Shown: positions 13,545-31,661 of the stretch, piece by piece
Numbering within the stretch: position 1 is the first letter of the stretch
Layout of the letters: every line of letters starts with the position of its first letter
Assembly (NCBI GenBank): GCA_049319825.1
Contig: JBMORT010000006.1
Span: forward strand, 16,012-80,011
Origin: Patescibacteria group bacterium
Lineage (GTDB): Bacteria; Patescibacteriota; Patescibacteriia; UBA11705; DATKZF01
Length of the DNA: 64,000 nt
Reading direction: 5' to 3'
Program-made: the position numbers and the translations under genes
Notes under the pieces: generated by a model
Told to the model about the DNA's origin: nothing
Seen by the model: only the letters and a program-made list of their open reading frames with translations
The model's database searches: none

Positions 13545-13895
13545 TGGGGGAGGATGTTATTTGGAAATTTGAAAATAGAAATTTGAAACGGAGGAAACTG
13601 AAAGATGAAATGAGAAGCTGAAGATTAGAAATTTGGTAATGGAAGATAATCGTCTGCGAAAATTTAATAAAATTAAATGCTATAAATTTCGATGTTATGG
13701 ATATGCTGATAGATGAGAAAATCGTATCTATCCGCGTGTTCGTAACCAATTTGTTCTTTGTTAAAATAAACAGCTAATTTATTCATAAATTAAAGGTCGA
13801 AGCTGTCAAACAAAATTCGGTTTCGAAACCGACTGGTCAGTCCCCGCTTGTCGTGGACTGATAAGTTAGAGAATTAAAAATTATTAATTAAAACT

Positions 13896-14975: not shown

Positions 14976-14985
14976 AGTTAGCTTT

Positions 14986-15020
14986 GGTCCCGAATCCATT
15001 CGGGGCCAGCCGGTAATTTT
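14986..15020 (+). terminator. terminator-like hairpin (ggtcccgaa...ttcggggcc) with a weak T tract
   Basis: Hairpin followed by ...taatttt. Confidence 0.3.
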
Positions 15021-15111
15021 AAAGATTAAAGATGAATATTGAATATAAAAATGAAGGATTAGACTAACAATTACATATTTGGAGGGAGATTATTATTAAT
15101 AAAAAATTGTT

Positions 15112-16062
15112 ATGAAAACATTGAAAGTATTTTTGGTAATACTTTTATCGGTAATGTTTATGTCGCCCGGTTTGGGCCAGGCGCTGACCGTCATACCGCC
15201 GGTGCTGGACAGCATTGATGCTGAACCCGGAAAAACCTATCAGGGATCTTATGAGTTGTTTAATGAAACGGATGTAGCGCAAACCTATTATTTTAAGGCT
15301 CACAATTTCGTGGCCCGAGGCGAAGAGGGGGAATCGGATTTGCTCACGGATGAGGATCAACAAATCGGCTTAGCTTCATGGGTTAAATTAGACGAACCGC
15401 AGCTCGTATTGGTCGGGGGAGATAGAAAAAAAGTCAATTTTAAAATAGATGTTCCGGCCGACGCTGAGCCGGGAGGCCATTACGCGGCGATTTTCGCCAC
15501 CACCCAGCCGCCGTCAGAAGACGTTGGTTTGGGTGAAAATACCGGAGTGCTCTTACTGGTGACCGTCCCCGGCGACATTCGAGAGAACGCGGAGCTGGTT
15601 GAATTTTCGTTGGCCAGCGGAAAAAAGGTTTATAACCGGCCGCCGGTCGAGTTTTTAATCAGAATAAAAAATAATGGAAATGTTCATTTCAAGCCGTTAG
15701 GCGATATCAGCATCAGCGGCTGGGCCGGGGAAAAGGTTAAAGTTGATGCCAATCCCAAGCGGGGAAACGTCCTGCCAAAGAGCATCCGGGCACTTCATCC
15801 CGTATGGGCCGGTCCGGCTGAGCGCGGCGGATTCATGCAGGAATTGAAGAATGAATGGCATAATTTCGCCTTCGGCCGATATAACGCACACCTGGAAATG
15901 GAATGGGGCTCTAATAATGAAAAGTTCATCGGCAATGTGGCGTTTTGGGTTTTCCCGTGGCGGGTGATGTTGGTCGGGTTGATTATTTTGGTTTTATTGA
16001 TTTTATTGATTAGAGGATACAATAAAGCGATTATTAAGAAAGCGCAAAAGCAAAATAAATAG
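15112..16062 (+). CDS. cell-surface protein with signal peptide and C-terminal TM anchor plus basic tail (DUF916/DUF3324-like by pattern)
   Basis: Signal peptide, then LTVIPPVLDSIDAEPGKTYQGSYELFNETDVAQTYYFKAHNF (Ig-like beta-rich). C-terminal FWVFPWRVMLVGLIILVLLILLIRGYNKAIIKKAQKQNK forms a TM segment with a basic tail. Confidence 0.8.
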   Translation: MKTLKVFLVILLSVMFMSPGLGQALTVIPPVLDSIDAEPGKTYQGSYELFNETDVAQTYYFKAHNFVARGEEGESDLLTDEDQQIGLASWVKLDEPQLVLVGGDRKKVNFKIDVPADAEPGGHYAAIFATTQPPSEDVGLGENTGVLLLVTVPGDIRENAELVEFSLASGKKVYNRPPVEFLIRIKNNGNVHFKPLGDISISGWAGEKVKVDANPKRGNVLPKSIRALHPVWAGPAERGGFMQELKNEWHNFAFGRYNAHLEMEWGSNNEKFIGNVAFWVFPWRVMLVGLIILVLLILLIRGYNKAIIKKAQKQNK

Positions 16063-16132: not shown

Positions 16133-19100
16133 TTGAAGAGTAGGCGGATTTCAAAACATTTGATGAATTCCCGAAATTCAAATTTCCACAAAACAAAGAA
16201 GACAAGGAACCGAAAGCTTGTTGTGTTTTTAATACTGGCAATGATTTTTAACTTGTCTTATTTTAATATTTCGTCAAAGCCGGCCGAGGCCGCGGCCAGC
16301 CAGTTCATCAATTATCAGGGCAAGCTGCTTGATACCAGCGGAATTGAGGTTGATAACGGTCAGTATCATGTTAGATTTAAAATGTACAATGCCGGAACCG
16401 GCGGCTCTCTGCTGTGGTCTGAAAGCTGGGATAACACCACTACTACGGCAACGGTCGATGCGGGATTATTCACTTTAAAATTGGGAGAAGTTAATCCTTT
16501 TCCGGCGACCTTGGATTTCCAAACAGAAAGCGAATACTGGTTGAGCGTGGAAATCGGCGGCTCCGGAGCGACGCCGACTTGGGATGGAGAGATGACGCCG
16601 AGAAAGGAAATTACCGCGGTGGCCTACGCGATGAACGCCGATAAACTTGACGGCAAGAGCGAGGAAGAGTTTGCCGATTTGAGCGAAGACGAAACGATCA
16701 CCGGGCAATACACGCATGACGTGGATGTATTTGACGGCGCGGCGTTAACGACAATTATCAACGCTTCAGACGATAACAGCGTGGACACTTTTTCTTCTTT
16801 GCAAGCCGACGCGGTGCAAAATTCCAATGACGGAGATAATTTATACGGCATATACGTCACGAATTTGCAGGGAACAGCCTCCACCGGCAATGAATACGCG
16901 ATATATCAAGCCGGCACCGGCTGGGATTACGGGTTGTATGTGGAAGATCAGGCGTATTTGGGACAAAATTTGCGCTTTAGCAGCAATTTCGATGTAAAGA
17001 ATACTATTATTGCCAGTGTGAATATAATGGATGTGCAGTCCATTGGAACGAACTCAATGGCTTTCCGAGTAATACCGGGCACAGCTCCCGCTTATTCGGC
17101 GCTGGGAGAAACGCAAGCTTCATTTTTCGAATTTCATCGAAATTCCAGCGGTACGGACAGAATGCTGCTGACTGCGCCGACCAATGCCACCAATGGCTAT
17201 CAATTTGTATCCTACGCCGCGCTTCCGGCGACTCCGGGGCCTTTCTCCTTCGGGTTTACCACCAGTTTGGCCGCGCCGCCGACTAAAGTCATGAATATTT
17301 TCAACACTGGGTCGGTTGGCATTAATACTTTTGGGCCGGATGCCAAGCTGGATGTGTTGGCCACATCTGGTGAGCAATTACGGCTGACATACACGGATGG
17401 TTCGGTTTATACCGGCTTCACCGTCAATTCGGACGGAGATTTGATTGTCGATGCCACCGGCAGTGATATTCGGCTCGCGACCGGAGATAATTTATGGGTC
17501 GCTTCATCGGCTGACATTGTGATTGGCAATACTTATCTAGGTGAATCTACCGCTCAGATCGATAGCGGCGCGTATAATGTGGGAGTGTATAACGGCAATT
17601 TAACATACTCGACCAATACGAATGTTCAGCAGGTGCTTGAAGATTTGGATACGGCGATTGGTTCCGCCGGCAGCAAATGGACGGATGCGGGAAGTTACAC
17701 TTATTTAACGGCTACGACCGATAATTTAGTAGTGGGTTCAAACGCGACGGCTGATGCTGAGTTATTTATGGACGTTGCTGATAAACGGTTACACATCGGC
17801 AGCGGATATATTGATTTCGATTTTACAGGTTCCGGCAACACGGCTGTCGGAGATGATTCTTTATATTCCATTACTAATGGTACCCATAATTCATCTATTG
17901 GTTATCAAGCCATGTACTATTTGACATCTGGCTATGACAATACGGCACTGGGATATCAGGCATTAAGAATAGACAGTTCCGGAACTGGAGGACAATCTTT
18001 TGGCAACACAGCCATTGGTAGTTTAGCTTTATCCAGTATTAATACATCCGCGGCTGTGTACAATACCGCTATCGGCGTTTCATCACTCCAGAATAATACG
18101 ACAGGTTTGGCAAATACTGCTATCGGTGCGTTAGCACTCGATTCAAATGTCATTGGTGCATCCAATGTCGCTTTAGGTTATTCAACACTTCAGGCGAATG
18201 TCAGCGGAGATTATAACGTAGCTTTAGGTGCAGAGGCACTAGACTCATTGACCTCTGCAGATGCTAATATTGCCATCGGTTACAAGGCTATGGATTCAAC
18301 AACGACTGGTCAGTATAACGTGGCATTAGGCCATCAATCTCTGCGAGCTAATATTAGCGCCGACTATTCTACAGCACTGGGCTATCAGGCGCTCTACAGC
18401 AATACGGCGTCGAATATCACAGCCGTGGGCGCGCAAGCCATGTACTCAAACGGCACGGGAACAGAAAATGTGGCGATGGGTTATCAATCACTATATTCAA
18501 ACGACTCAGGCGATCAGCACACAGCAATCGGCTATCAATCATTGTACTCATTATCGGCGAATGTGGATGATAATACAGCTGTTGGATACAGAGCAATGTA
18601 TTCGAATTTAGCTGGAGGTCAGAGCACAGCTATCGGTTCGCAGGCACTTTATAACGCGTTGGCGCCGGGCTACAGCACGGCAGTGGGCTACCAAGCTTTA
18701 TACGCGACCACGACCGGAGATTACAATATCGCCGTGGGAAACCAATCGATGGTAGCCAATACGACGGGCAGCGACAACGTCTCTATTGGAGTAAATGCGC
18801 TGGATTCAAACACTACGGGAAATTACAATATAGCGATCGGCCGCCAATCGCTGCAGGCAAACATTAGTGCCGACTATTCTACAGCACTGGGCTATCAGGC
18901 GCTCTACAGCAATACGGCGTCGAATATCACAGCCGTGGGCGCGCAAGCCATGTACTCAAACGGCACGGGAACAGAAAATGTGGCGATGGGTTATCAATCA
19001 CTATATTCAAACGACTCAGGCGATCAGCACACAGCAATCGGCTATCAATCATTGTACTCATTATCGGCGAATGTGGATGATAATACAGCTGTTGGATACA

Positions 19101-22100
19101 GAGCAATGTATTCGAATTTAGCTGGAGGTCAGAGCACAGCTATCGGTTCGCAGGCACTTTATAACGCGTTGGCGCCGGGCTACAGCACGGCAGTGGGCTA
19201 CCAAGCTTTATACGCGACCACGACCGGAGATTACAATATCGCCGTGGGAAACCAATCGATGGTAGCCAATACGACGGGCAGCGACAACGTCTCTATTGGA
19301 GTAAATGCGCTGGATTCAAACACTACGGGAAATTACAATATAGCGATCGGCCGCCAATCGCTGCAGGCAAACATTAGTGCCGACTATTCTACAGCACTGG
19401 GCTATCAGGCGCTCTACAGCAATACGGCGTCGAATATCACAGCCGTGGGCGCGCAAGCTTTATACTCTAATACATCTGGTACAGGAAACGCCGCTTTAGG
19501 GTACCAGTCTCTATATTCCAATACTTCGGGAAATAACAATTCCGCCTTTGGTTATCAGTCATTGTTCAGTCATGCCTCTGGTAATGATGGTAATACAGCA
19601 ATGGGATATCGTTCAATGTATTCAATGACCGCGGGAGCGTTAAATACATCAATCGGAACAGAGGCTTTATACAGCGCTTTAAGCACGTCGGGAAATGTGG
19701 CAATCGGTTATCGCGCTGGTTATTTTGAAACCGGAAACAATCGTTTATTTATTGATAACAATTCACGATCTGACGAAGCTACCGGAAGGGTAAGATCTTT
19801 AATTTATGGCGAATTTGCCTCTGCAACCGCCGATCAATTATTAAGAATAAACGGATTGACTCAAATTCAAGGTCATTTGATACCATACCAAGATAATTTT
19901 TATAATATCGGATCCGCAGATTACCGTTGGAATAATTTATATGTGGATGATGCTTATGTGTTAAAAGGAGCGACGAATATCAATTTAGAGTCCAGCGGCA
20001 CCCCAACAACATCTGGAGCATATGCTATTGGAGCCAATGATGAGTTTACATACTCAGATTCGACTAATGTTCAGGATGTTCTAGATGATTTGGATGCAGC
20101 ATTGGCTTCCGCCGGCAGCAAATGGACGGATGCGGGAGACTTCACTCACTTAACCTCAACAATCGATGACGTGGTGATCGGCGCGTCAACCACTGAAGAC
20201 GCGGTGTTCTGGTTTGATGTAACGGATAACGCGGAAAAGTTTTCAATTGACGCGTCATCGGACGCGCATACCACCGCCGCGCTTGATATTGATTTTCGCG
20301 GCGATGCCAATAATTTAAAAGTGGTTGATATATATGCCGGATCAGCCAGCGGTCTATCTGCCAATTCATTTCTGTTCGGACAATCAATTACTTTAGGATA
20401 TAACGCCGGTGACGCGGCGGGCACTTATCGAATCGCCAACAATGTTGACGTGAACGGCACTAACGCTACTTCAGATATAATTGGATACGCTTTTTTCGAT
20501 AATACTCAAACCGGACAAGATGGGTTATCCGGTGTCGGGTCGGCGACCGGAGCTTATTCGCTGATTTCTCATTCCGGCAGCGGCAGTTTGACCGGTTTTC
20601 AAAATTATTTGTGGCACACGGGCAGTGGCAGCGTTACCGGATTCGGCGGATCGACATCTAGTTCCGGCAGCGGCACAGTTTATGCCGCCAACCCGCAGGT
20701 TTATGGTTTGTCCGGATTTTCCGGTTCGCTTTACGGCTATCGAACATCCATGACCAACAGCAGCGGTTCTACACAGAACATGCTGGGTTTTGATATAAAT
20801 GTGACCAATAATGCCGGCGCTTCGGCCGACAGTTTATGGGGAGGCAAAATAACGGTAAAGGCTTCGGGGACGGAAGATACCGCCGCTTACGGATTGCAGG
20901 TGGTTTCCGATACTGATTTAATTGATAGTTTGATTAATTTGGCGGTCGTCAACGGCGGCTCGGCCGGTTATGGTTTTGATATGAATGGCGCGACAATCGC
21001 GACCGCGGATATCAGATTGTCCAACGGATCAACAATAGATAATCTGACATCAACGGTCGTTGCTTTCAGTGACGGTATCAGAATCGGAAACACTGCGGAC
21101 ACCACGGCCGGAAACATCCGCTGGTCCGGCGCGGATTTTGAGGGCTATAACGGCGCGGGTTGGCAGAGCCTGACATCCGGCGGCGGATCACTCTGGACAG
21201 ATGCCGGCACATACACTTACCTGACGGCCACGCAGGATGATTTGCTCGTCGGTTCAAGTAATAATGCCAGCCGGCCGCTTTATTTCGATGTCAGCAACAT
21301 GTCGCTGGAAATCGGATCGGGCGACACGTTAAACGCCCGGCTTTATATGTATTCGCAGGATGGGGATTCCGGATTGATCGAATATGCCGCTTCGGATCGA
21401 TTTGAATTTTACGATCAGATTTGGGTTCAGGGTTATATTGATTTCGATAACGCTTCCGCCGATACGGCTGTCGGTTACGTGGCTCTGAATTCCAATACCA
21501 CCGGCACCGATAATTCGGCTTTCGGTTACCAAGCGCTCGTCAGCAATACTACGGGTTCATATAATACCGGCATCGGCGCATCCTCATTGATCAGCAACAA
21601 CACCGGATTGGCTAATACGGCCTTGGGAGCTTCTTCATTGTTCTCCAATCAAGGAGGGTCGAATAATACCGCCATCGGCGTCAGCGCCTTATATTCGAAT
21701 GTTTCCGGTGCCAGCAATGTGGCGATCGGTTCCGGTGCTCTAGGTGCGAGCGTCGGAGAAGATTATAATGTGGCCATCGGCGCGGCCGCGCTGGCTAACA
21801 GTTCCGGCGGTACCGCCAACTCGGTAATCGGTTTTCAGAGTTTAACCAATAATATAATTGGAGATTATAATTCCGCCTTGGGTTATCGGTCTCTTTATAA
21901 TGCCACCGGCGATTATAATGTGGCTATCGGTTCTGACTCATTATTTTCGAACATTAACGGAGACAGCAATATCGCCATCGGCTCATACGCCGGATACCAT
22001 GAAACGGGCAGCAATACTTTATATATAGACTCTATTTATCGCTCTAATGAGGCTGATGGCCAGGTAAAGTCGCTAATCTATGGAGAATTCGCCTCAGCCA

Positions 22101-25100
22101 CAGCCGATCAATTGTTCCGAATTAACGGCAATATGGAGGTTCAGGGAAACCTGTCGCCATTGGCCGATGACGTTTATAATCTGGGCTCAGCCGATTCCAG
22201 ATGGGCGAATTTATATCTGGGCCCCGCGTCTTTATACATCGGTCAGAATGGTAATGATTATTCCATTTCTTATAACACCGGATCCAGCGCGTTGGTATTC
22301 AATGAGTCGGGAGCGGATCGGGACATCAGGATTGAAGGCGACACCGACACCAATCTGTTTTTCGTGAATGCCGGCAGCGACCGAATTGGCATTGGATTAA
22401 ATAATCCGGCGGAAAAATTGGAAGTCAGCGGCGCGATCAAGCTGGGAACAACTTCAAATACCAATGCCGGCACCATCCGCTGGACCGGCGCGGATTTTGA
22501 GGGCTATGACGGCGCGGGCTGGCAGAGCCTGACATCCGGCGGCGGATCCTTATGGACGGATGTTGGAGACTTCACTCACTTAACCTCGACAATCGACGAC
22601 GTCGTGATCGGATCAGACGCGACCGAAGACGCAGTATTTTGGTTTGATGTTACCGATGGGGCCGAAAAATTGACCATAGACGCTTCAAGCGATGCTCATT
22701 CATCCGCTGTCGCGTTCGACGTTAATTTTCGAGGGAGCGCGAACAATTTGAAAGCCGTGGATATTTACGCCGGTTCTTCAGCCGGGTTGACCGGCGCGTA
22801 TAATAATTTAATGGGACAAAACATCACCGTCGGTATAAATGCCGCGGATCAGGCCGGCACCATGCGCATCGGCAGCAACGTCAATATCGATGGCACCAAT
22901 GCCACCGCTGATGTTGTCGGCTATACTTTTTGGGATTTCGTTGACACCGGTCAAGGCGGCTTTACTGGCGTTGGATCGGCCACTGGGTTATATCCAATAA
23001 TGAATCATACCGGTAGCGGCAGTTTGTACGGAGTGAATAATTACTTAAGACATTCGGGATCGGGCAGTCTTTACGTTTCCGCCGCGCAAGCGCTGGGAGC
23101 CTCGGGATTCACCGGTTCCTTATACGGAAATTCATTGACCATGGTCAATCAAGCCGGGAGCAACGCGCAAAACATAATGGGGTTTGATCTTAATGTCACC
23201 AATTCGTCTTCGGCCACCGCAGACAGCGTTATCGGCGGCAAGATAACGGTCGACGCCTCCGGCGCGGAAGATATCGCGGCTTACGGATTGCAGGTAGTTT
23301 CCAAAAACGCGCTGGTAGACAGTTTTATCTATTTGGCGAGCCAAACCGGCGGCTCCGCCGGCTACGGCTTGGATATGAACGGCGCGACAATCGCCACCGC
23401 GGATATCAGATTGTCCGGCGGATCGACAATTGATAATTCGACGTCAACGATAATCGCTTTCAGCGACGGCATCAGAATCGGAAACACTGCGGACACCACG
23501 GCCGGAAACATCCGCTGGTCCGGCGCGGATTTTGAGGGCTATGACGGCGCGGGCTGGCAGAGCCTGACATCCGGCGGCGGATCCTTATGGACGGATGCCG
23601 GAGCGTTTACATATTTAACCGCCACCACCGATGACATGGTGGTCGGCTCGGCCGCCACTTCGGACGCGGAGCTGTGGTTTAATGTCAGCGGCAAGAGATT
23701 GACTATCGGATCGGGGTATGTTGATTTCGATTATGGAACCGGCACGGACAACGTGGGCATCGGCAGCAATACTTTAACGGCGATCACTACAGGAAGTTAC
23801 AATATCGGCATCGGCACCGGCGCCTTGCAGGCGGCGACGGATAATAATGGCCTGACCGCTGTCGGTTATCAGGCGTTATATACGAATTCATCGATCGGAA
23901 CAAATAATACCGCTGTTGGTTACAGAGCATTATATCTTAATAACGGCGGTGATTTTAACACCGCGCTTGGATACGAAGCGCTTGATGCCAATGTGAGCGG
24001 GTCAAATAGTGTGGCGATCGGGTACCGCGCGCTTACCAATAGCACCGGAAGCGGAAATGTGGCGGTCGGTTCCGAGGCGCTGTTATCCGCCGTCGGCTCA
24101 ACCAATATCGTCGCGATTGGATATGGCGCTGTTCAGGATCTCACATCGAACGGAGAAGTTGTCGGCGTAGGATATAATTCGCTGGCAAACGCGACTGGCG
24201 CCGGAAACACGGCAATTGGATACATCGCCGGACAAGGAAACGCCGCGTCGGCTACAGGGACGGCCAACACTGCTGTGGGCAGAGGCACATTATCGTCTTT
24301 TTCAACCGGAAATAATAATGTGGCTGTTGGGTATAACGCGTTGGATCAATTGAGTACCGGTACTTATAATATTGCCCTCGGCACCAATGCTTTGGGCGCG
24401 GCGGTGACCGGAAGCAATAACATTGCTATCGGCAACAGCTCATCACTCTTAAACACGTCCGGGATTGATAATATCGCTTTAGGATTTTTCGCGTTAAGCA
24501 CTAATACCGCAGGCCAGGGGAATGTCGGAATCGGACGCAATTCTTTAAGAAACGGCACTGGCAGTTATAATGTTGCGCTGGGCTATGAAGCTGGTTATCG
24601 GGAAACTGGCAGCAATACATTATATATAGATAATCAGGACAGAGGCAATGAAGCCTCTGGCGAGGCCGAATCCTTGATTTATGGCGTGTTTGATAATGTC
24701 GTGTCCAGTCAATTATTCAGGATAAATGCTCCAACGCAAGTTCAGGGAAACTTAATTCCATATCATGATAATGTTTATAATTTAGGCAGCCCAAGCAACC
24801 GCTGGAACAATATTTACACCGACAGAATGATTATGAGTTCCAATGCCGATCTCTATTTTGACGGCACCGATATTTTCTTCAGGAATTTTGAAACCAATGG
24901 AGACATCACCTTGGACGCGACCTCAACCGGCACCGGCAATGTCATTGTCGTCGCCGATAACTGGGCGGTCAACAGCAGCGGCAACATGTCCATTAACGGA
25001 GACATGACCGTGACCGGCGGAGATTTGAATCTTTCATCGGATATCCGGCTGCATGTCAGCGGCGATGATTTGCAGATTCAAAACGCTGCCACTGGCGGAG

Positions 25101-28100
25101 ATATATATTTGGATCCGACATACAACGGCTCCAGCGGATTCGTTTTTGTCAGCGGTGATTTGATGCCGGTTTACGATGATACTTTTGACATTGGATCCCC
25201 GGATCTGCGCTGGCAGGACGGATATTTTTCCGGGCAGGTTTATGTCGGCAATACATTAGAAATTTCAGATGATGGATTTTACGATACTGATAGCGCCATC
25301 GGTTTTTTCCCCGATGGACAGCTGACCAGAGGGTTGGCAATTACCGACGATGTGACTGTGGGTTTGGCTATTACCACCAATGCCAGCACAAATTTGACCA
25401 TTTTGCCAAACAACGCCGATTTGGACGTGCGTCCGACAGCTAATAGCACTGACTTTTTTCAAGTGCAAAATGCCGCCGGCACAGCGATATTTAACGTTGA
25501 CAGCTCCAATTCACGAGTCGGCATCAATACGGCCGCGCCGGATTACGCGCTGGATGTCGCCGGATCTGTCGGCATGGACGATTATATATATCATAACGGC
25601 GACAGCAATACGTATTTGGGATTTTCCGCGGACGATACGCTGGTGGTTTATTCTTATGGGGTGAAGTTGATGGAATATTACAGTTCCTCGGCTTTATCCA
25701 ATTCCGTCACCGGTAACCCCGATAACAATCGGGTGAACTTCGTTTGGGACGGGGACACCAACGACAGTCTATTCCGCATCGCCGCGCTTCAGGAGCAAAT
25801 CGGCATTGGCGCCACCGGCGGCGCGGCCAGCATGGACGGCAAGCTGGTCGTTTATCAGACAGCGACCGCTGATATATTTAATTTGTATGATGGGTCGGAT
25901 AATGTTTTCACGGTGACTGACGGCGGCAATGTCGGCATCAGGCAAACCTCGCCAGCCAGTGATTTTGAAATATTGTCAGACAACAGTACCACGGGCGCGA
26001 CAATGCAGCTCAGACGAAACGATGGCGCCGTGCTTGATGGAGATGATTTGGGATATTTGTATTTTTCAGGATTGGATAGCGGCGACACACTCAACGCCAC
26101 TGGCGCGTACATAAAAGCTGAGGCCACAGATACCTGGGGCGACGCATCCGATCCGGATGACGCGCCGACAGCTATGCATTTTTATACCCAAAACGACGGC
26201 ACTGGCAATAACATGACTTTCCCGATGATGACGATATATGAAGATATCGGCGTTGGCTTATTGCTTAACGGCAATTTGCCGCAGGCGACTTTTCACATGG
26301 AAACCAATAAAAACGGCTATGGCATCCGGATGGAAGAGTATCTCGGCGGCGGCGCCGGCGATTACTGGGAATGGGGAGTCAACGCCGCCGGTGATTTGAA
26401 TTGGAACGACAACGGCACGACCAGAATTTCATATAAAAACGGTGGCGATGTGGGCATCGGCACCAGCGGGCCCGGCGCTAAATTGGAGATTTATGATAAT
26501 GACGATGTCGGCGTGGCATTGGAAGTCAATAGCGACGAGTCGGATACGGCCGCGCAAAATGTTTTTCAAATCAGAACTGATTATAATGCCGCCGATGATT
26601 TGGTGTTTGTGGTCGATGCCGATGGCACGGTCCGAAACGATAATGGCACCTACACTACCGGCGCCGACTACGCGGAATATTTTTGGACAGCTGACATGAC
26701 TTTGGCCACGGCCGACGTGGTTTGCATCGATCCGACGCACAATAACGCGGTTTCCAAATGTTCCGGCGCCAATGACGCCAATATTTTGGGCGTTGTTTCC
26801 ACTAACCCGGCCTTCATCGGCAACGCGGGATCAAACTGGATATTTGACGGTGATCCGAATTATGTGATCATCGGTTTGGTCGGTCAAGTGCCGATTCGGG
26901 TCAGCAATGAAAACGGCCCGATCAGCGTTGGCGATTATTTAACGTCTTCGTCCACTCCGGGCGTGGCCATGAAAGCCGACCCCGGCAGCCCGACAGTCGG
27001 TATCGCCATCGAGCCGCTGACGGCGGGCGCCGGCATCATCAAAGTCGTGATTTCCAGAAATAACGGCAGCAATACTTTCTGGGCTGCCGGCAACAATGGC
27101 ATTTATCAAAACAATTTGCCAACGATTATCGGTCCGGATGCCGCTTTCAGCTATGTGCAGAGCGCGGCCGCCGGAGATCTGCAGATCGCCGATGATTTTG
27201 AAGCCAGAGGCGACGGCTATGTCGGCGCGAATATGATTGTCGGCGCTTCGACATCGGCCGCGGAGACATTGGCTAACGCCGGGTTTGCGATGAACGGCAA
27301 TGATTTGTTTGTGGCCGGCGATGCGGGCATTGAAGGCAATATTTATACTGACGGCTCGTTTATCGCCGGACCGGGTACCACCACTTACAGCGACGGCTCG
27401 ATTACTTCGACAAATACGATGACCATCACTTCAAATACCGGAGACCTGACGCTCGACTCTGGTTCCGGCACATTGAAGCTCGGCGCCGGCACGAATGCAA
27501 TATCAAATTCTGATGCGGGCGCAGATTTAACATTAAATTCGAACGGAGACATCAATTTCTTCAATTCAAATAATTCAATTGATTCCGGCGGCAATTTGAA
27601 TCTGGCCGGCGATATTAATATCGGCGGATCGCTAGTCGTTAATGATATGAGGCTGGGAGATATCGACATCGCTAACGGCGCAATAGCCAGCACGGGCGAT
27701 TTGACCATCGCTTCTGGCGCCAGCCAGGATCTGACGCTTGATTCCGATTCGGGAACGCTCAAGCTCGGCGCGGGCACCAATGAAATCTCCAATACTGACG
27801 CCAGCGCGGATCTGACCATCAAATCCGAAGGCAACATCAATTTCTTCGACGCCAATACATTCATTGATAAAGACGGGAACCTGACTCTGGCCGGCCAGCT
27901 GCAGGCGGCCATGGATGTTATCGCTCAGCAGAACGTGATTATAAAAAATCAGCTTGAGGTGGATCAAATCGCCGCTGATGATCGGCAAGAAATCACCGTC
28001 ATGGACGAGATGGTTTTTGAGCAGGGATTAAAGGTCTCGGCCAAAACGGACACGACAGTCGCCGGCACGCAAGTCAACGTCGCCGGATTCGGCAATGCCA

Positions 28101-31100
28101 ACAACCAGACATCGCGCGCGGCCGCGGTTTACAACGGCAAGCTTTATGTCGGCACATACAACACTTCAAACGGAGCCGGGCTTTGGGCATACGACGGTTC
28201 GAACTGGGCATCGGTTGATACTAACGGCTTTGGCAATGCCAACAATACTTCAATTAATTCAATGATCGCCTATGGCGGCGGTTTAATCGTGGGCACGAGA
28301 AATACGAACAAGGCCGAGGTTTGGATATGTGACGATACGGATACTTGCTCGCAGCAAAATTTAGGAGCGACTTTTGACGGTAATAACGACGCGGCGCAGG
28401 CAATGACCGTTTATAACGGCAAATTATTCATGGGCACGGACAATGCCATTGATAACAGTGAAATTTGGCAGTTTATCGACACCAATAATTGGTTAATGGC
28501 CGATAACACCAACGGGTTTTTAAGCACGTATCAAAATGACGCCTTGACGGCGCTGCTGAGCATTGGCTCACAGCTTAATAATGAAGGATTATTGGCCGGT
28601 ACCAAAAATAACAGCGGCGCGCAGATTTGGCGAAGAGGATCAAATTTCACCTGGACCAGAATCGATAATAGTTCATTCGGCGATATCAATAACGTGGAGG
28701 TGATGGCCATGACCGCATATAACGGTCAGGTGTTCGCCGCCACCAAAAATTCCAGCGGTTGTCGAGTTTATAAACAGCGAGAAGAAAGCACCAGCTGGGA
28801 CGCGGCCGGCAGCGCGGGATTGATAAATTCGGCCTATACCGAATGTCGTTCCATTGTCGTCTATAATGGCGATTTGTACGCATTATTAGGCAAGACTTCG
28901 GGCGCGGGCATGGCCGTGGCCAAATATAACGCTATGGCCAACAGCTGGTCCGCGGTTTATACCAATGCCAGCGACCTGGCCGGTTATTGGTTGCAAACAT
29001 TCGGCGAAAAGTTGTATTTTGCCGCTGAAAGCTCCGGTCAAGTGAAAGTATTTGAATATAATGAAAATAAGAATCTGTCCCAGTCGATTGAATTCATGGC
29101 CAATGGCGAAACGGCCGCCTTATACTTTAAATCCGACGCGGCCGGCGACGCCAATATCGGCCAGCAATCGGCGGGTGCGTTTATCATGACCCATACGTTG
29201 ATCACCAATTCCGGCGCTTATGACTTGGCCGAAGATTGGCCGACGGAAGACCCGGGGATCGAAGCCGGCGACGTGGTGGCCGTTGACCCGTTCAATAAAG
29301 CCCACGTGATCAAGGGTTCGAAAGATAACAGCGCGGTGGGCATAATTTCCACTGAACCGGGCTATATTTTGTCACAAAAAGCCGATGGTCGAATTTACCG
29401 TCCGGTGGCTTTGGCCGGCCGGGTACCGGTAAAAATAAGCAATGAAAACGGGCCGGTTAAGGCGGGAGATTTATTGACACCGGCGTCAATACCGGGTTAT
29501 GCGATGAAATTGATCGGATCCGGGCCGGTGATCGGCAAAGCTTTGGAAGATTACGATTTCAGCGCCGCCGGCGATTCGTACGAGGTATCCCAAGAATTGC
29601 AATCCGCGGCTCAGCAATTTGACGAAATCGCGGAAAATACGATGAAGCTGGTTGAAAATACGGAAGAAGTGGTCAGCTCTTTAAATCAGACCAAGCAAGA
29701 ATTATTGAGCATTGAAAATAATCAGGAATTAACAGCTCAAGAAAAAGACCAGTTGATCAATGAACTATCCGGGGAAATAGAAAATGTGGCGGTCGCTTTG
29801 GAAATAGATGATCAGGCCATTACCGACATCAGCGACAGCGCCGATATCGTTGATGTACAAAATCAAATAATTGAAAAGGCCCAGGAATTGGAGAATCAGG
29901 CGATGCAGGCGGAAATCGCCAAGAGCCAACTGATTCAGCCCATGGCCAAAGATCCGGGCAAGGGCAGAATTATGGCATTGGTGATGAACAGTTATTATTT
30001 TGAATCAACCGACGGCCAGACAGCCGGTCAATTGGCCGCTGGTTCGGCGGCCATCGATCCGCAATCTGTCGCGAGCGTTGACTTCGCTGAAATATTAACT
30101 GTTGCCGGCGATGGAGCGATTGAATTGGCCTCGAGCGTCAGAATATACGGCGATTTATATGTTAATGGCAATTTGGTGGTGACCGGCGATATCGATCTGG
30201 CGGGTAATTTAAAAATCGGAGATAAAATATATATATCCAATCAAATGTCCGGCACGGCGCTGATCGCCTCCGCGGACGCGACTGCGGTCGAAGTGAAGTT
30301 TGATACTCCATACGAAGAAATACCGAGAATCACCGTCACGCCGGAACTGCTGGGATTAACGGCCGATGAAAATATATTTGATGTTTGGGATGGTCGGTAC
30401 ATCATTACCGATAAATCGACTGAGGGATTTACCATTAATATCGCCAACGCGCTTTGCGTGTCCGCCGGCGCGTCAGCTGATGTTGTCGGTTGTCAGCATC
30501 ATTTAAGGTTTGATTGGGTGGCGTTTGGAGTTGTTTCCGATGAAGAATCGCTGGCGCAGATGGTCGAGATGACCGCCAAACCGGCCAGTACCGATAAAGA
30601 GCCGCCATCGATTGACCCTGCGGTCAAAGTAATCATTCGAAACGGCGCCAATTTAGACACCACCGATATCGGCAACAGCTTGATTGGCCTGGGATACGCT
30701 GTTTACAAAGGCGCCGACACGATCAGTTATTACTCCACCTCCAGAATATTGGTGCTGAATTCGCAGCTGTCGCCGTCCGTGCTCAACGAAATTAGGTTCT
30801 TAATCGGCGGTGAGATAGAGTACGCCTCAGCAGCCGGTGAATATGGCGATAGCGACGTGGTAATTTTCTTGGGAGAGGATTTAACCAAAGATGTGTTCAC
30901 CTACGATCAGCAGAAATTATTGGATTCAAATATAACCGACGAAATCCCACCGCTGCCCGCACCGATCGCCGAAACGGCGTCGAGCGACGACACGTTGTCC
31001 GAACAAGCGAATAACGATCAACCCATTCTCAGTGCGGCTGACGGGGCGGTTGAAGATGAAGAAACGCCGATCAATGTCGACGGTCAAATTTCGGATTCGA

Positions 31101-31159
31101 CAGTATCAGCCGAGTCGCAGCCCGAACCGGAAATAGTTGCTGTCCCCGTCGGTGAATAA
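16133..31159 (+). CDS. giant surface protein (5008 aa): N-terminal signal anchor, tail-fibre-like N-domain, three blocks of YadA-head-like beta-roll repeats, beta-propeller-like repeats, coiled coil
   Basis: Uninterrupted 15-kb ORF with a TTG start and AGGAGA 7 nt upstream. Repeats of the type NTAIGyxALxSNTTGxxN. A module ...SLIYGEF...RINGxxQVQGNL.P..D.YNLGS...RW.NLY occurs three times. YNGKLYVGT / NGFGNANN units are propeller-like. Confidence 0.9.
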   Translation: MKSRRISKHLMNSRNSNFHKTKKTRNRKLVVFLILAMIFNLSYFNISSKPAEAAASQFINYQGKLLDTSGIEVDNGQYHVRFKMYNAGTGGSLLWSESWDNTTTTATVDAGLFTLKLGEVNPFPATLDFQTESEYWLSVEIGGSGATPTWDGEMTPRKEITAVAYAMNADKLDGKSEEEFADLSEDETITGQYTHDVDVFDGAALTTIINASDDNSVDTFSSLQADAVQNSNDGDNLYGIYVTNLQGTASTGNEYAIYQAGTGWDYGLYVEDQAYLGQNLRFSSNFDVKNTIIASVNIMDVQSIGTNSMAFRVIPGTAPAYSALGETQASFFEFHRNSSGTDRMLLTAPTNATNGYQFVSYAALPATPGPFSFGFTTSLAAPPTKVMNIFNTGSVGINTFGPDAKLDVLATSGEQLRLTYTDGSVYTGFTVNSDGDLIVDATGSDIRLATGDNLWVASSADIVIGNTYLGESTAQIDSGAYNVGVYNGNLTYSTNTNVQQVLEDLDTAIGSAGSKWTDAGSYTYLTATTDNLVVGSNATADAELFMDVADKRLHIGSGYIDFDFTGSGNTAVGDDSLYSITNGTHNSSIGYQAMYYLTSGYDNTALGYQALRIDSSGTGGQSFGNTAIGSLALSSINTSAAVYNTAIGVSSLQNNTTGLANTAIGALALDSNVIGASNVALGYSTLQANVSGDYNVALGAEALDSLTSADANIAIGYKAMDSTTTGQYNVALGHQSLRANISADYSTALGYQALYSNTASNITAVGAQAMYSNGTGTENVAMGYQSLYSNDSGDQHTAIGYQSLYSLSANVDDNTAVGYRAMYSNLAGGQSTAIGSQALYNALAPGYSTAVGYQALYATTTGDYNIAVGNQSMVANTTGSDNVSIGVNALDSNTTGNYNIAIGRQSLQANISADYSTALGYQALYSNTASNITAVGAQAMYSNGTGTENVAMGYQSLYSNDSGDQHTAIGYQSLYSLSANVDDNTAVGYRAMYSNLAGGQSTAIGSQALYNALAPGYSTAVGYQALYATTTGDYNIAVGNQSMVANTTGSDNVSIGVNALDSNTTGNYNIAIGRQSLQANISADYSTALGYQALYSNTASNITAVGAQALYSNTSGTGNAALGYQSLYSNTSGNNNSAFGYQSLFSHASGNDGNTAMGYRSMYSMTAGALNTSIGTEALYSALSTSGNVAIGYRAGYFETGNNRLFIDNNSRSDEATGRVRSLIYGEFASATADQLLRINGLTQIQGHLIPYQDNFYNIGSADYRWNNLYVDDAYVLKGATNINLESSGTPTTSGAYAIGANDEFTYSDSTNVQDVLDDLDAALASAGSKWTDAGDFTHLTSTIDDVVIGASTTEDAVFWFDVTDNAEKFSIDASSDAHTTAALDIDFRGDANNLKVVDIYAGSASGLSANSFLFGQSITLGYNAGDAAGTYRIANNVDVNGTNATSDIIGYAFFDNTQTGQDGLSGVGSATGAYSLISHSGSGSLTGFQNYLWHTGSGSVTGFGGSTSSSGSGTVYAANPQVYGLSGFSGSLYGYRTSMTNSSGSTQNMLGFDINVTNNAGASADSLWGGKITVKASGTEDTAAYGLQVVSDTDLIDSLINLAVVNGGSAGYGFDMNGATIATADIRLSNGSTIDNLTSTVVAFSDGIRIGNTADTTAGNIRWSGADFEGYNGAGWQSLTSGGGSLWTDAGTYTYLTATQDDLLVGSSNNASRPLYFDVSNMSLEIGSGDTLNARLYMYSQDGDSGLIEYAASDRFEFYDQIWVQGYIDFDNASADTAVGYVALNSNTTGTDNSAFGYQALVSNTTGSYNTGIGASSLISNNTGLANTALGASSLFSNQGGSNNTAIGVSALYSNVSGASNVAIGSGALGASVGEDYNVAIGAAALANSSGGTANSVIGFQSLTNNIIGDYNSALGYRSLYNATGDYNVAIGSDSLFSNINGDSNIAIGSYAGYHETGSNTLYIDSIYRSNEADGQVKSLIYGEFASATADQLFRINGNMEVQGNLSPLADDVYNLGSADSRWANLYLGPASLYIGQNGNDYSISYNTGSSALVFNESGADRDIRIEGDTDTNLFFVNAGSDRIGIGLNNPAEKLEVSGAIKLGTTSNTNAGTIRWTGADFEGYDGAGWQSLTSGGGSLWTDVGDFTHLTSTIDDVVIGSDATEDAVFWFDVTDGAEKLTIDASSDAHSSAVAFDVNFRGSANNLKAVDIYAGSSAGLTGAYNNLMGQNITVGINAADQAGTMRIGSNVNIDGTNATADVVGYTFWDFVDTGQGGFTGVGSATGLYPIMNHTGSGSLYGVNNYLRHSGSGSLYVSAAQALGASGFTGSLYGNSLTMVNQAGSNAQNIMGFDLNVTNSSSATADSVIGGKITVDASGAEDIAAYGLQVVSKNALVDSFIYLASQTGGSAGYGLDMNGATIATADIRLSGGSTIDNSTSTIIAFSDGIRIGNTADTTAGNIRWSGADFEGYDGAGWQSLTSGGGSLWTDAGAFTYLTATTDDMVVGSAATSDAELWFNVSGKRLTIGSGYVDFDYGTGTDNVGIGSNTLTAITTGSYNIGIGTGALQAATDNNGLTAVGYQALYTNSSIGTNNTAVGYRALYLNNGGDFNTALGYEALDANVSGSNSVAIGYRALTNSTGSGNVAVGSEALLSAVGSTNIVAIGYGAVQDLTSNGEVVGVGYNSLANATGAGNTAIGYIAGQGNAASATGTANTAVGRGTLSSFSTGNNNVAVGYNALDQLSTGTYNIALGTNALGAAVTGSNNIAIGNSSSLLNTSGIDNIALGFFALSTNTAGQGNVGIGRNSLRNGTGSYNVALGYEAGYRETGSNTLYIDNQDRGNEASGEAESLIYGVFDNVVSSQLFRINAPTQVQGNLIPYHDNVYNLGSPSNRWNNIYTDRMIMSSNADLYFDGTDIFFRNFETNGDITLDATSTGTGNVIVVADNWAVNSSGNMSINGDMTVTGGDLNLSSDIRLHVSGDDLQIQNAATGGDIYLDPTYNGSSGFVFVSGDLMPVYDDTFDIGSPDLRWQDGYFSGQVYVGNTLEISDDGFYDTDSAIGFFPDGQLTRGLAITDDVTVGLAITTNASTNLTILPNNADLDVRPTANSTDFFQVQNAAGTAIFNVDSSNSRVGINTAAPDYALDVAGSVGMDDYIYHNGDSNTYLGFSADDTLVVYSYGVKLMEYYSSSALSNSVTGNPDNNRVNFVWDGDTNDSLFRIAALQEQIGIGATGGAASMDGKLVVYQTATADIFNLYDGSDNVFTVTDGGNVGIRQTSPASDFEILSDNSTTGATMQLRRNDGAVLDGDDLGYLYFSGLDSGDTLNATGAYIKAEATDTWGDASDPDDAPTAMHFYTQNDGTGNNMTFPMMTIYEDIGVGLLLNGNLPQATFHMETNKNGYGIRMEEYLGGGAGDYWEWGVNAAGDLNWNDNGTTRISYKNGGDVGIGTSGPGAKLEIYDNDDVGVALEVNSDESDTAAQNVFQIRTDYNAADDLVFVVDADGTVRNDNGTYTTGADYAEYFWTADMTLATADVVCIDPTHNNAVSKCSGANDANILGVVSTNPAFIGNAGSNWIFDGDPNYVIIGLVGQVPIRVSNENGPISVGDYLTSSSTPGVAMKADPGSPTVGIAIEPLTAGAGIIKVVISRNNGSNTFWAAGNNGIYQNNLPTIIGPDAAFSYVQSAAAGDLQIADDFEARGDGYVGANMIVGASTSAAETLANAGFAMNGNDLFVAGDAGIEGNIYTDGSFIAGPGTTTYSDGSITSTNTMTITSNTGDLTLDSGSGTLKLGAGTNAISNSDAGADLTLNSNGDINFFNSNNSIDSGGNLNLAGDINIGGSLVVNDMRLGDIDIANGAIASTGDLTIASGASQDLTLDSDSGTLKLGAGTNEISNTDASADLTIKSEGNINFFDANTFIDKDGNLTLAGQLQAAMDVIAQQNVIIKNQLEVDQIAADDRQEITVMDEMVFEQGLKVSAKTDTTVAGTQVNVAGFGNANNQTSRAAAVYNGKLYVGTYNTSNGAGLWAYDGSNWASVDTNGFGNANNTSINSMIAYGGGLIVGTRNTNKAEVWICDDTDTCSQQNLGATFDGNNDAAQAMTVYNGKLFMGTDNAIDNSEIWQFIDTNNWLMADNTNGFLSTYQNDALTALLSIGSQLNNEGLLAGTKNNSGAQIWRRGSNFTWTRIDNSSFGDINNVEVMAMTAYNGQVFAATKNSSGCRVYKQREESTSWDAAGSAGLINSAYTECRSIVVYNGDLYALLGKTSGAGMAVAKYNAMANSWSAVYTNASDLAGYWLQTFGEKLYFAAESSGQVKVFEYNENKNLSQSIEFMANGETAALYFKSDAAGDANIGQQSAGAFIMTHTLITNSGAYDLAEDWPTEDPGIEAGDVVAVDPFNKAHVIKGSKDNSAVGIISTEPGYILSQKADGRIYRPVALAGRVPVKISNENGPVKAGDLLTPASIPGYAMKLIGSGPVIGKALEDYDFSAAGDSYEVSQELQSAAQQFDEIAENTMKLVENTEEVVSSLNQTKQELLSIENNQELTAQEKDQLINELSGEIENVAVALEIDDQAITDISDSADIVDVQNQIIEKAQELENQAMQAEIAKSQLIQPMAKDPGKGRIMALVMNSYYFESTDGQTAGQLAAGSAAIDPQSVASVDFAEILTVAGDGAIELASSVRIYGDLYVNGNLVVTGDIDLAGNLKIGDKIYISNQMSGTALIASADATAVEVKFDTPYEEIPRITVTPELLGLTADENIFDVWDGRYIITDKSTEGFTINIANALCVSAGASADVVGCQHHLRFDWVAFGVVSDEESLAQMVEMTAKPASTDKEPPSIDPAVKVIIRNGANLDTTDIGNSLIGLGYAVYKGADTISYYSTSRILVLNSQLSPSVLNEIRFLIGGEIEYASAAGEYGDSDVVIFLGEDLTKDVFTYDQQKLLDSNITDEIPPLPAPIAETASSDDTLSEQANNDQPILSAADGAVEDEETPINVDGQISDSTVSAESQPEPEIVAVPVGE
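18353..19450. repeat. 510-bp tandem duplication inside the giant gene (2 full copies plus a partial, about 99.8% identical)
   Basis: Copies start at 18353, 18863 and 19373 with a single mismatch (agcgcc/agtgcc). They encode identical 170-aa beta-roll segments. Confidence 0.9.
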
Positions 31160-31214: not shown

Positions 31215-31661
31215 ATGAATATTATGCCACAAAAAGAAATGGGCTCCATGCCGAAGAAATCAAATTCCAAGGTAATAATGATTTTGATTTTGGTGGTATT
31301 GATTATCGCGGCCGGAGCATTGTATTTTTTCGTTTATCGAAAAGGAATCAACAAATCGGACTATCAAGCGATTTTCTTATCGAACGGCCAAGTTTATTTC
31401 GGCAAAGTGACCAACAAAAACGCCGGCTATGTCGTGATGAAAGACATTTATTATTTGCAGCTCAAACAGCCATTGCAGGAGCAAACCGAACAGCAGCAGA
31501 ATTCACCCGATTTGATATTGATTAAGCTGGGCAATGAACTTCACGGACCAATGGATCGCATGGAAATCAATAGGAATCATGTGCTGTTCATTGAAGATTT
31601 GAAAGATGATTCAAAAGTGGTAACGGCCATAATGGAATACAAGGCCAGCGAACAGCAATAA
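31215..31661 (+). CDS. hypothetical membrane-anchored protein (148 aa)
   Basis: Single TM segment (VIMILILVVLIIAAGALYFFVY). It sits immediately downstream of the giant gene with no intervening terminator. Confidence 0.65.
   Translation: MNIMPQKEMGSMPKKSNSKVIMILILVVLIIAAGALYFFVYRKGINKSDYQAIFLSNGQVYFGKVTNKNAGYVVMKDIYYLQLKQPLQEQTEQQQNSPDLILIKLGNELHGPMDRMEINRNHVLFIEDLKDDSKVVTAIMEYKASEQQ

Follow-up and report, generated by a model that had tools for sequence, protein, structure and literature searches.

Little is known of how ultra-small, host-dependent Patescibacteria recognize and hold their partner cells, and the giant proteins at their surface mostly carry no better label than "hypothetical." The window analyzed here, a stretch of 64,000 nucleotides (nt) from a Patescibacteria group bacterium (GenBank assembly GCA_049319825.1, contig JBMORT010000006.1, positions 16,012 to 80,011 of the forward strand), carries one gene for a protein of 5008 amino acids (aa) and raises the question of what such a protein does. 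A preliminary description, made from the DNA alone, had proposed a giant, modular, fiber-like protein from a lineage of ultra-small bacteria. The source is indeed Patescibacteria, four of the flanking proteins being identical to NCBI records MFZ5365010, -020, -023, and -031, and both the module anatomy and matches to phage tail-spike families bear out the fiber-like character. We conclude that the protein is probably a Sec-exported, very long cell-surface adhesion fiber, most likely homotrimeric, made from bacteriophage tail-fiber and tailspike parts.

Modular anatomy and phage-type repeats

The gene is one uninterrupted open reading frame (ORF) of 5008 codons (15,027 nt) on the + strand, with a TTG start codon preceded at 8-9 nt by AGGAG. 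It had been read as a single ORF from the outset, correctly, and the modules first proposed for it were all found at or near their proposed positions. No other frame across 16133..31159 holds an ORF of more than 175 aa. Residues G, A, S, N, T, and D dominate the composition of the protein, which has 8 Cys in total. An NCBIfam search of the protein and PDB sequence searches with both of its halves (E ≤ 1) returned nothing. The gene and its three repeat blocks are as follows.

16133..31159, + strand: giant fiber gene of 5008 aa, read from a TTG; other possible starts at codon 11 (ATG) and codon 31 (GTG)
17810..19732, + strand: repeat block 1, aa 560-1200; 17-aa unit NxAxGyxALxsNtxGxx, repeated ~37 times; resembles phage tail spikes
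21425..22012, + strand: repeat block 2, aa 1765-1960; 17-aa repeats
23690..24622, + strand: repeat block 3, aa 2520-2830; 17-aa repeats

The three blocks rich in G, N, A, S, and T had been described with repeats of 14-20 residues. The blocks are present (aa ~560-1200, ~1765-1960, and ~2520-2830), but their period is 17 residues, with an autocorrelation of 0.27-0.40 at lag 17 in each. They matched PHROG families 6002, 23837, and 4636 ("tail spike protein" and "virion structural protein") with E-values from 1e-108 to 1e-30; the matches for aa 1-1200 reached 6e-108, 4e-97, and 2e-85, and those of the other two blocks were weaker. By tblastn, the repeats found tail proteins in 112 phage records at 32-43% identity. 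Together with the PHROG matches, this bears out the tail-fiber-like character that had been suggested. The 17-residue NxAxGxxAL repeats of the window protein recur in phage tail proteins, SPO1 gp2.52 among them, and in gp2.52 the NxAxGxxAL..N..G repeats are followed at once by an S74 chaperone domain with the motif S|DxRxK.

The repeats had also been likened to the heads of YadA-type trimeric autotransporters, an assignment that fails, since phage PHROG families were matched and no YadA or RTX hidden Markov model (HMM) was. Specifically, YadA_head (PF05658), PF05662, YadA_anchor (PF03895), and the RTX family HemolysinCabind (PF00353, the family of GGxGxD nonapeptide repeats) gave no match at E ≤ 0.1 in any segment. 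A YadA-like trimeric autotransporter or an RTX-type beta-roll adhesin would have repeats of similar composition, and YadA_head was matched in two distant homologues (P0016 and P0110). However, a period of 17 is neither 14 nor 9, a C-terminal beta-barrel is missing, and those cells of the Candidate Phyla Radiation (CPR) that have been looked at are bounded by one membrane (PMC8080830). The missing anchor already refutes an adhesin of this kind, and we give it practically no credence.

Two internal domains of the phi29 gp12 type

The preliminary description had listed two copies of a module with VPI(K/R)VSNENGP but had not recognized it as the Peptidase_G2 domain of phi29 gp12. Both copies are present.

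26570..27127, + strand: chaperone/autocleavage domain 1 (Peptidase_G2 type), aa 3480-3665; motif DYAE; predicted cut A3511|D3512, with the D3512 codon at 26666
29165..29587, + strand: chaperone/autocleavage domain 2, aa 4345-4485; motif DLAE; predicted cut Y4363|D4364, with the D4364 codon at 29222

The copies of the VP(I/V)(R/K)(V/I)SNENGP module at aa 3499-3627 and aa 4355-4472 are 35-40% identical (E 4e-19). Domain 1 scored 38.5 bits on PF11962 (Peptidase_G2, intramolecular chaperone autoproteolytic cleavage domain) against a cut-off of 25 (E 1e-9; best stretch aa 3495-3567), and a type-B chaperone copy from a homologue scored 16.8 bits on the same family. A profile built from 25 module copies found phi29 gp12 in the PDB (6qz9, E 7e-6; 3gqh, E 6e-5; also 3suc). 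In addition to a PBCV-1 fiber protein, it picked up tailspike Dpo31 through its chaperone domain. An S74-type chaperone in the window protein was considered and rejected.

In the profile alignment, W-S691-D692-F-A-E695-Y-F of gp12 (6qz9) lies over G-A-D-Y-A-E-Y-F of the family, and residue 1 of 3gqh, a 163-residue C-terminal fragment of gp12, aligns with the D of GADYAEYF. The residue numbers of the gp12 cleavage site are those that we take to be correct from PDB chain lengths and the alignment. The D, A, and E columns are invariant or nearly so across the aligned module copies and, for domain 2, invariant in alignment A2. The corresponding window motifs are D3512-Y-A-E3515 and D4364-L-A-E4367. 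Because D-x-A-E aligns with the gp12 cleavage site, self-cleavage is predicted at A3511|D3512 and Y4363|D4364.

An AlphaFold2 monomer model of aa 4340-5008 had a mean predicted local distance difference test (pLDDT) score of 54, with 65-86 in domain 2. Searched with Foldseek, this low-confidence model matched 3gqh_A with a probability of 0.99, an E-value of 0.018, and a template modeling (TM) score of 0.31 on the target; its top structural match was the phi297 tailspike (E 1e-4). By function and homology, the self-chaperoning tailspikes of the phi29 gp12 class come nearest among characterized systems. The C-terminal chaperone domain of gp12, the pre-neck appendage of Bacillus phage phi29 (PDB 3GQ7, 3GQH, 3SUC, and 6QZ9), is homologous, carries D692 and E695 in register with the D-x-A-E of the window copies, and likewise comes after a beta-solenoid stalk. 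Unlike gp12, the window gene is cellular, and its product is Sec-exported, six times longer, and equipped with two internal copies rather than one C-terminal copy. The window copies are followed by propeller, coiled-coil, lectin-like, and LytR_C-like domains, and cleavage in them is a prediction only.

Stalk modules and the question of an enzyme

Between the N-terminal part and chaperone domain 1, the repeat blocks alternate with the following modules. Identities to P0207 here and below refer to a 3764-aa homologue from a syntenic locus.

19730..19948, + strand: junction module 1, 70 aa (LFIDNN...YNIGSADYRWNNLY); resembles the C-terminal stalk part of End_tail_spike
20000..21232, + strand: ~450-aa module copy 1, aa ~1290-1700; G/S/T-rich; ends AGNIRWSGADFEGYNGAGWQSL
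22010..22222, + strand: junction module 2, 70 aa; RW motif at aa 2018
22223..23632, + strand: linker with third IRW...EGY motif (aa 2115) and ~450-aa module copy 2 (aa 2141-2500)
24620..24823, + strand: junction module 3, 70 aa; RW motif at aa 2885; best Pfam End_tail_spike match
24824..26569, + strand: beta-rich stalk region, aa 2898-3479; fourth RW motif at aa 3021, several "NVGIG...KLEV" motifs; 31% identity to P0207

A 70-aa module after each repeat block had been reported. The three copies stand, and a fourth that had gone unlisted lies at aa 3021, the GS...RW..(L/I)Y junction motif being found at aa 1260, 2018, 2885, and 3021. At junction module 3, End_tail_spike (PF12219) scored 40.7 bits against a cut-off of 25, though the match is confined to positions 128-153 of 160. 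Over all the RW junction modules, the aligned part was limited to positions ~106-155, in the last third of the endosialidase stalk model. Two copies of a ~450-aa module had likewise been listed; both exist (aa 1328-1700 and 2138-2498, 55-75% identical), but their end motif IRW(S/T)GADFEGY occurs three times, at aa 1662, 2115, and 2460, and not twice. The junction module matches the stalk end of the End_tail_spike model. In contrast to spikes with S74 chaperones, such as the K1F endosialidase and SPO1 gp2.52, the window protein has no S74 domain or sialidase propeller, and its three repeat blocks are split by large modules unmatched in phages.

Such matches bear on a reading in which the protein is a secreted tailspike-like enzyme, or a carrier of one, that degrades the capsule or wall of a partner during predation or feeding, with a glycanase or lyase site in the beta-solenoid, like that of phage depolymerase spikes. 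The End_tail_spike match and the phi297 tailspike as top structural match of the C-terminal model would fit this, phi29 gp12 is generally known as an enzyme-bearing spike, and Beta_helix/NosD, pectinesterase, or K1-lyase_C domains occur in the family members P0045, P0091, P0105, P0096, P0112, and P0133. Yet Pfam, NCBIfam, PHROG, and PDB sequence searches found no catalytic domain in the window protein itself, and the End_tail_spike match is limited to the stalk end and does not cover the sialidase propeller. We therefore regard an enzymatic role as unlikely and an adhesive one as the better account.

The distal third

Beyond chaperone domain 1, the chain carries further modules on either side of chaperone domain 2.

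27170..28012, + strand: beta-solenoid-like segment, aa 3680-3960; two ~95-aa repeats, "DLTLDSGSGTLKLGAGTN"; 71% identity to P0207
28055..29137, + strand: propeller-like region at aa ~3975-4335, with YNGxLY(V/A)GT units of ~47 aa, six to seven in number
29591..29932, + strand: acidic coiled coil, aa 4487-4600; 3.5-residue periodicity, modeled helices
30074..30532, + strand: short beta-helix cap and H-type-lectin-like domain, aa ~4648-4800; sub-threshold Pfam match, Foldseek match
30620..30892, + strand: LytR_C-like domain, aa ~4830-4920; recognized via P0207; beta-alpha-beta elements in the model, at low confidence
30893..31156, + strand: acidic, proline-containing disordered C-terminal tail, aa 4921-5008; from sequence and AlphaFold2 model

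Two modules that had been proposed for this region were confirmed. The propeller-like YNGKLYVGT units appear as six YNGxLY units ~47 aa apart at aa 4000-4300, Pfam DUF6242 was matched over aa 3960-4340 (31.8 bits; cut-off 29), and the same unit is regular in homologues. The blade-like periodicity suggests a propeller fold for aa ~3975-4335, and a profile search of the PDB with this region gave no significant relative. For the acidic coiled coil, hydrophobicity power was 107 at period 3.5 and ≤33 at other periods, and AlphaFold2 modeled long helices.

With the lectin region, Foldseek returned discoidin II and snail agglutinins such as Helix pomatia agglutinin (2vm9, 2ccv, and 4q56) at a probability of 1.0 and E-values of 0.009-0.02, the model being of moderate confidence. 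The likeness to these H-type lectins is one of fold (TM ~0.5 on the target) and is accompanied by HMM scores below the cut-off. A lectin-like domain is kept after the last chaperone domain in ~28 homologues. H-type lectins and coiled coils of this sort form trimers in known cases, and the known H-type lectins bind sugars as trimers. The LytR_C-like segment of the window protein, 39% identical to that of P0207, gave no match to PF13399 of its own.

The C-terminal end raises another reading, namely, that the protein is a structural part of the producer's own envelope (a fibrous coat, a spacer, or an S-layer-like element) that is tethered C-terminally and does not recognize a partner. The LytR_C-like domain followed by an acidic, proline-containing tail would suit such a role, as would weak matches of u3, a protein encoded directly upstream, to the peptidoglycan-binding domain of WxL-interacting proteins; in Vampirococcus, the gaps between CPR cells are taken up by a fibrous coat (PMC8080830). 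Nevertheless, lectin-like and propeller-like modules are more typical of ligand recognition, and extreme length with module turnover (2037, 3764, and 5008 aa at one locus in related genomes) would be usual under diversifying host-interaction pressure. A purely structural role is, in our judgment, distinctly unlikely.

Probable signal peptide and N-terminal domain

16133..16291, + strand: probable signal peptide, aa 1-53; n-region basic, followed by a hydrophobic helix (aa 25-44) and AEA|AAS
16292..16702, + strand: family-defining N-terminal domain, aa 54-190; beta-sandwich plus helix bearing NADKLDG (motif at aa 168)
16703..17809, + strand: beta-rich region, aa 191-559; low model confidence; holds the "GINTFGPDAKLDV" motif and the first "...SKWTDAG" junction motif

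What had been called a basic signal anchor does have a basic N-terminus and a hydrophobic helix at aa 25-44, but it is probably not an anchor, since AEA|AAS follows. A cleavable Sec signal peptide, cut probably after Ala53, is more likely. Cleavage there is suggested by the -3/-1 rule and by AxA at the same place in homologues, directly before the conserved INYQGK strand.

The N-terminal domain (aa 54-190) was modeled by AlphaFold2 with a pLDDT of 87-98. It had no relative in Pfam, NCBIfam, PHROG, or PDB sequence and profile searches. Aa 55-196 gave no tblastn match in 50,697 phage records, and the proposed link of NADKLDG to phage collar and tail-fiber proteins could thus not be reproduced. 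Fold searches of the PDB and BFVD returned generic beta-sandwich matches, the best of which was a Wzt carbohydrate-binding domain (probability 0.97, E 0.04). The domain may merit definition as a new domain family.

Proposed assembly of the fiber

In the model that we favor, the protein would be exported by the Sec pathway and lose its signal peptide, and the mature N-terminal beta-sandwich would dock the fiber at the envelope, possibly onto the upstream-encoded proteins u1-u3. Outside the cell, both gp12-type domains would trimerize and template the folding of the upstream beta-solenoid/triple-beta stalk, as in phage spikes, the stalk being formed by the three 17-residue repeat blocks, the junction modules, and the 450-aa modules. 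Self-cleavage at A3511|D3512 and Y4363|D4364, as predicted from the invariant D-x-A-E motif, would then follow. The distal third (propeller-like module, coiled coil, and trimer-type H-lectin-like domain) would bind surface glycans of a partner or host, the most likely function because this third carries the likely binding modules. Finally, the fiber would be lengthened or shortened as repeats and whole modules are duplicated or lost. The sequence work itself shows the ORF, its repeat anatomy, the homology of its modules to phage families, the alignment of the motif with the gp12 cleavage site, the synteny, and the differing lengths of the orthologues; we infer the trimeric state, actual cleavage, the cell-proximal end, glycan binding, and the role in host attachment.

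Several observations weigh against this model. Aa 191-559, the 450-aa modules, and aa 2898-3479, which make up about 40% of the protein, are without a fold assignment. Both AlphaFold2 runs were of monomers and had mean pLDDT scores of 54-58, with confidence only in the N-terminal domain and moderate confidence in chaperone domain 2 and the lectin. Domain 2 alone had no Pfam match, H_lectin (PF09458) scored 21.3 bits at aa ~4718-4770, below its cut-off of 24 (17.9-20.7 bits in two homologues), and LytR_C (PF13399) scored 21.6 bits on the P0207 segment (positions 1-85 of 86), below its cut-off of 22.2. The two chaperone domains are internal, being followed by ~1350 and ~520 residues, whereas those of phage spikes are C-terminal. 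A Peptidase_G2 domain would be expected at the C-terminal end, to be discarded after folding, a position that neither window copy has, and most homologues keep 150-500 residues beyond the last copy. If both domains are cut, the putative binding modules would therefore be severed from the stalk unless held non-covalently. Autocleavage of gp12 also requires ATP, and none is available extracellularly. With its LytR_C-like domain and proline-containing acidic tail, the C-terminal end could instead lie in the producer's own wall, which would reverse the proposed topology.

A more far-reaching version takes cleavage literally. The protein would then be a self-processing polyprotein fiber from a very large undescribed family (tens of thousands of clusters) with its own N-terminal docking domain and the accessory genes u1-u3, it would serve as the main host-attachment organelle of episymbionts, and it would have been domesticated wholesale from phage receptor-binding proteins. 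Three trimeric pieces would result, namely, a stalk of ~3460 aa, a piece of ~850 aa with chaperone, solenoid, and propeller, and a piece of ~645 aa with chaperone, coiled coil, lectin, and LytR_C. This version has some chance of being right, but we find it doubtful.

Integrity of the gene

A further question is whether the 15-kb ORF could be an assembly artifact, either a chimera or a product of collapsed or expanded repeats. Near-identical DNA repeats prone to short-read misjoins are indeed present. By DNA self-comparison, nt 2197-2816 of the ORF are 98.7% identical to nt 2707-3326 over 620 nt, and further DNA repeats in the ORF are 82-89% identical over 100-440 nt.

18329..19458, + strand: recent tandem duplication inside repeat block 1; DNA self-comparison, 98.7% over 620 nt

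The duplicated unit measures 510 nt, or 170 aa, which equals ten 17-aa repeats, and it is 92% identical at the protein level. The duplication is very recent and is the latest step in the expansion of the locus.

Against an artifact, the reading frame is open across all 15,027 nt. P0207, which was assembled separately from another sample (JGI 3300022699), shares the N-terminus and is collinear at 54% identity over aa 3383-4998, which shows the C-terminal arrangement to be genuine and no chimera of the assembly. P0207 and a second syntenic homologue, P0001, also occupy the same gene order. The window contains no N or other ambiguous base. We consider an artifact very unlikely; real doubt is limited to the copy number of the 510-nt unit, the sole part of the ORF that short-read assembly could misjudge.

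The public gene call for this ORF, P0176 (4978 aa), begins at the GTG of codon 31 (window position 16223). It was considered as an independent full-length orthologue and rejected, being the same protein called from a downstream start. Starting at GTG would delete the basic n-region that homologues keep, and TTG, or ATG at codon 11, is preferred for that reason. The deposited P0176 is probably truncated at its N-terminus. Promoter and terminator scans around the gene gave nothing informative.

Genomic neighborhood

The 64-kb window consists of housekeeping genes, including those for IleRS, a U32 peptidase, RuvA, FemAB, a split ComEC, NDK, UvrA/B/C, photolyase, Ham1, and three tRNAs. Neither a capsid, portal, terminase, or integrase gene nor any other phage gene was found in it. 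This speaks against a phage or prophage tail-fiber gene, an explanation invited by the fact that nearly every recognizable module of the protein has its best characterized relatives in phages. Not only are IleRS, RuvA, FemAB, ComEC, NDK, and UvrABC its neighbors, but the locus is syntenic in three genomes, the N-terminal domain is without a match in the phage records searched by tblastn, and the Sec signal peptide would not be needed by a virion protein assembled in the cytoplasm. We judge it extremely unlikely that this is a phage or prophage gene and retain a cellular adhesion fiber as its probable product.

The genes adjoining the fiber gene are these.

12606..16062, + strand: secreted proteins u1 (12606-13544), u2 (13896-14975), and u3 (15112-16062); directly upstream of the fiber gene, no Pfam family
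31215..31661, + strand: small protein of 148 aa with one N-terminal membrane helix; between the fiber gene and ComEC; 70-72% identity in both syntenic loci

Both u1 and u2 end in YY(A/V)IANF. In u3, a signal peptide is combined with a membrane anchor at the C-terminus that carries a basic tail; u3 and a 29%-identical homologue gave sub-threshold matches to PF06030 (WxL-interacting protein, peptidoglycan-binding domain), with E-values of 0.05 and 0.006. The trio u1-u2-u3 is syntenic with the fiber gene in three genomes, and u1/u3 pairs adjoin fiber genes in otherwise different contexts. Homologues of u3 occur in 9 and those of u1 in 6 of 84 loci, 79 of which had been fetched via the chaperone domain. 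The trio resembles, in outline, the WxL/DUF916 surface-complex clusters known from Gram-positive bacteria, and u1-u3 may be accessory or docking proteins for the fiber. Distant copies of the 148-aa protein were found within ~10 kb downstream of chaperone-bearing fiber genes at four other loci.

ComEC (31702-34130) consists of two overlapping ORFs, the first with DUF4131 and Competence domains and the second with the metallo-beta-lactamase (MBL) domain. The split is probably genuine rather than a frameshift error, because the same split occurs in both syntenic loci, L001 and L085. Elsewhere in the window, 35003-36100 encodes a PEGA-domain protein, 47336-49186 a 616-aa protein (no Pfam match, 68% identity in L001), and 58514-59902 a 462-aa protein (no Pfam match).

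Homologues and expansion of the locus

The window shares with L001 and L085, two metagenomic contigs that were assembled separately, the core order u1, u2, u3, fiber, small membrane protein, ComEC, and MBL. L001 further resembles the window in having FemAB upstream and NDK downstream. In L085, the contig ends after the MBL gene, and a 1571-aa gene other than FemAB lies upstream of u1. Flanking proteins are 47-76% identical between the syntenic loci, and the fibers differ in length, with 2037 aa in L001 (P0001), 3764 aa in L085 (P0207), and 5008 aa in the window. P0001 combines the N-terminal domain with two 450-aa modules and one repeat block; it has just one chaperone domain and shares the C-terminal domain. 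The collinear part of P0207 contains, in order, chaperone, solenoid, propeller, chaperone, coiled coil, lectin, and LytR_C. These sequence comparisons show the propeller cassette to be an insertion between two chaperone types that in most relatives lie side by side, and the fiber locus to be one that expands through duplication of modules and repeats.

Homologues are large proteins of roughly 900-2800 aa from many Patescibacteria classes. They cover the query patchily, as expected from module shuffling. In 84 of 171 collected homologues, the N-terminal domain directly follows the signal peptide. Homologues carry G2-type modules, one or two per protein, at a distance of 150-500 residues from the C-terminus; where there are two, they often stand in tandem ~260 aa apart, and some family members carry S74 in place of G2. 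In the databases they are named "hypothetical protein" or, rarely, "tail fiber domain-containing protein."

Among representatives of clusters at 50% identity, the N-domain profile matched 85,947 at E ≤ 1e-3, 46,968 at ≤1e-10, and 6,272 at ≤1e-30; the first count is probably inflated because the profile includes signal-peptide columns. The best 150 of these representatives include proteins of 3000-7453 aa, and most have the domain in their first ~50 residues, with ~10 having it internally. A scan of species-representative genomes with a five-sequence alignment found the chaperone subtype at 231 loci, and nearly all of the 80 listed were from Patescibacteria. The C-terminal third gave no close relative in a scan of species-representative genomes, and a homologue search with aa 4600-5008 returned nothing at E ≤ 1e-3; the conserved C-terminal domain was seen by local BLAST against the homologues already collected.

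Some chaperone-module loci, including L007, L013, L018, and L027, come from bins labeled "uncultured Gammaproteobacteria" (TPA assemblies). Either these labels are wrong or the chaperone module may occur outside Patescibacteria. In L003 (1-21000), the 2255-aa fiber homologue P0034 comes directly after a 5298-aa protein, and a few kb from it lies a diversity-generating retroelement that comprises two bAvd genes, a reverse transcriptase, and a target protein of the Lcl_C type. The window has no diversity-generating retroelement.

Comparison with known surface proteins and significance

The preliminary description had held that the architecture may be novel, which is only partly true, given the N-terminal domain at 46,968 cluster representatives (E ≤ 1e-10) and the 3764-aa P0207 with the same C-terminal arrangement. 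Searches of the accessible literature found no paper that links Patescibacteria with the terms tail-fiber, tailspike, endosialidase, or H-type lectin, none that describes the family, and none with Peptidase_G2 or PF11962.

Trimeric autotransporters such as YadA and Hia are likewise long, repetitive, and probably trimeric, with Asn/Gly/Ala-rich beta-roll-like repeats and a coiled coil. The window protein differs from them in lacking a membrane-anchor barrel and a YadA-head HMM match, in its period of 17, and in its presumably monoderm organism. MYRF is a eukaryotic cellular, membrane-associated protein that has co-opted a phage tailspike chaperone domain for trimerization and self-cleavage (PMC3742443, PMC8326128). 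Its domain is of the S74 type and its cleavage frees a transcription factor, so that the likeness is one of concept only and involves no homology.

Giant fibrous adhesins in Patescibacteria are expected. Vampirococcus lugosii is reported to have giant envelope proteins of 1392-4163 aa and a fibrous surface, and Patescibacterium danicum FhaB-like giant proteins of 4939 and 6025 aa; host attachment was proposed in both cases (PMC8080830, PMC11809585). These giants, compared by description, belong to the same phylum-level lineage and size class and have the same proposed role as the window protein, and, like it, they lack full-length homologues (PMC8080830, PMC11809585). They are described with WD40, PKD, integrin, fibronectin, or FhaB domains, with no mention of phage-type chaperones, an INYQGK N-terminal domain, or an H-lectin tip. 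What is new is a cell-encoded, exported giant fiber that re-uses parts of phage receptor-binding proteins and has two internal autocleavage modules. Rather than being an isolated case, this fiber belongs to a very large family.

The locus gives the giant surface proteins of Patescibacteria a testable anatomy, with phage-derived parts, predicted cut residues, a candidate glycan-binding tip, a family-defining N-terminal domain, and a conserved neighborhood. The series of 2037, 3764, and 5008 residues at one locus among related genomes is a natural example of fiber length and module content tuned by duplication. If the predicted cleavage is true, the protein would be a bacterial counterpart of MYRF, that is, a phage tailspike chaperone domesticated by a cell, and also a source of self-trimerizing, self-processing scaffolds.

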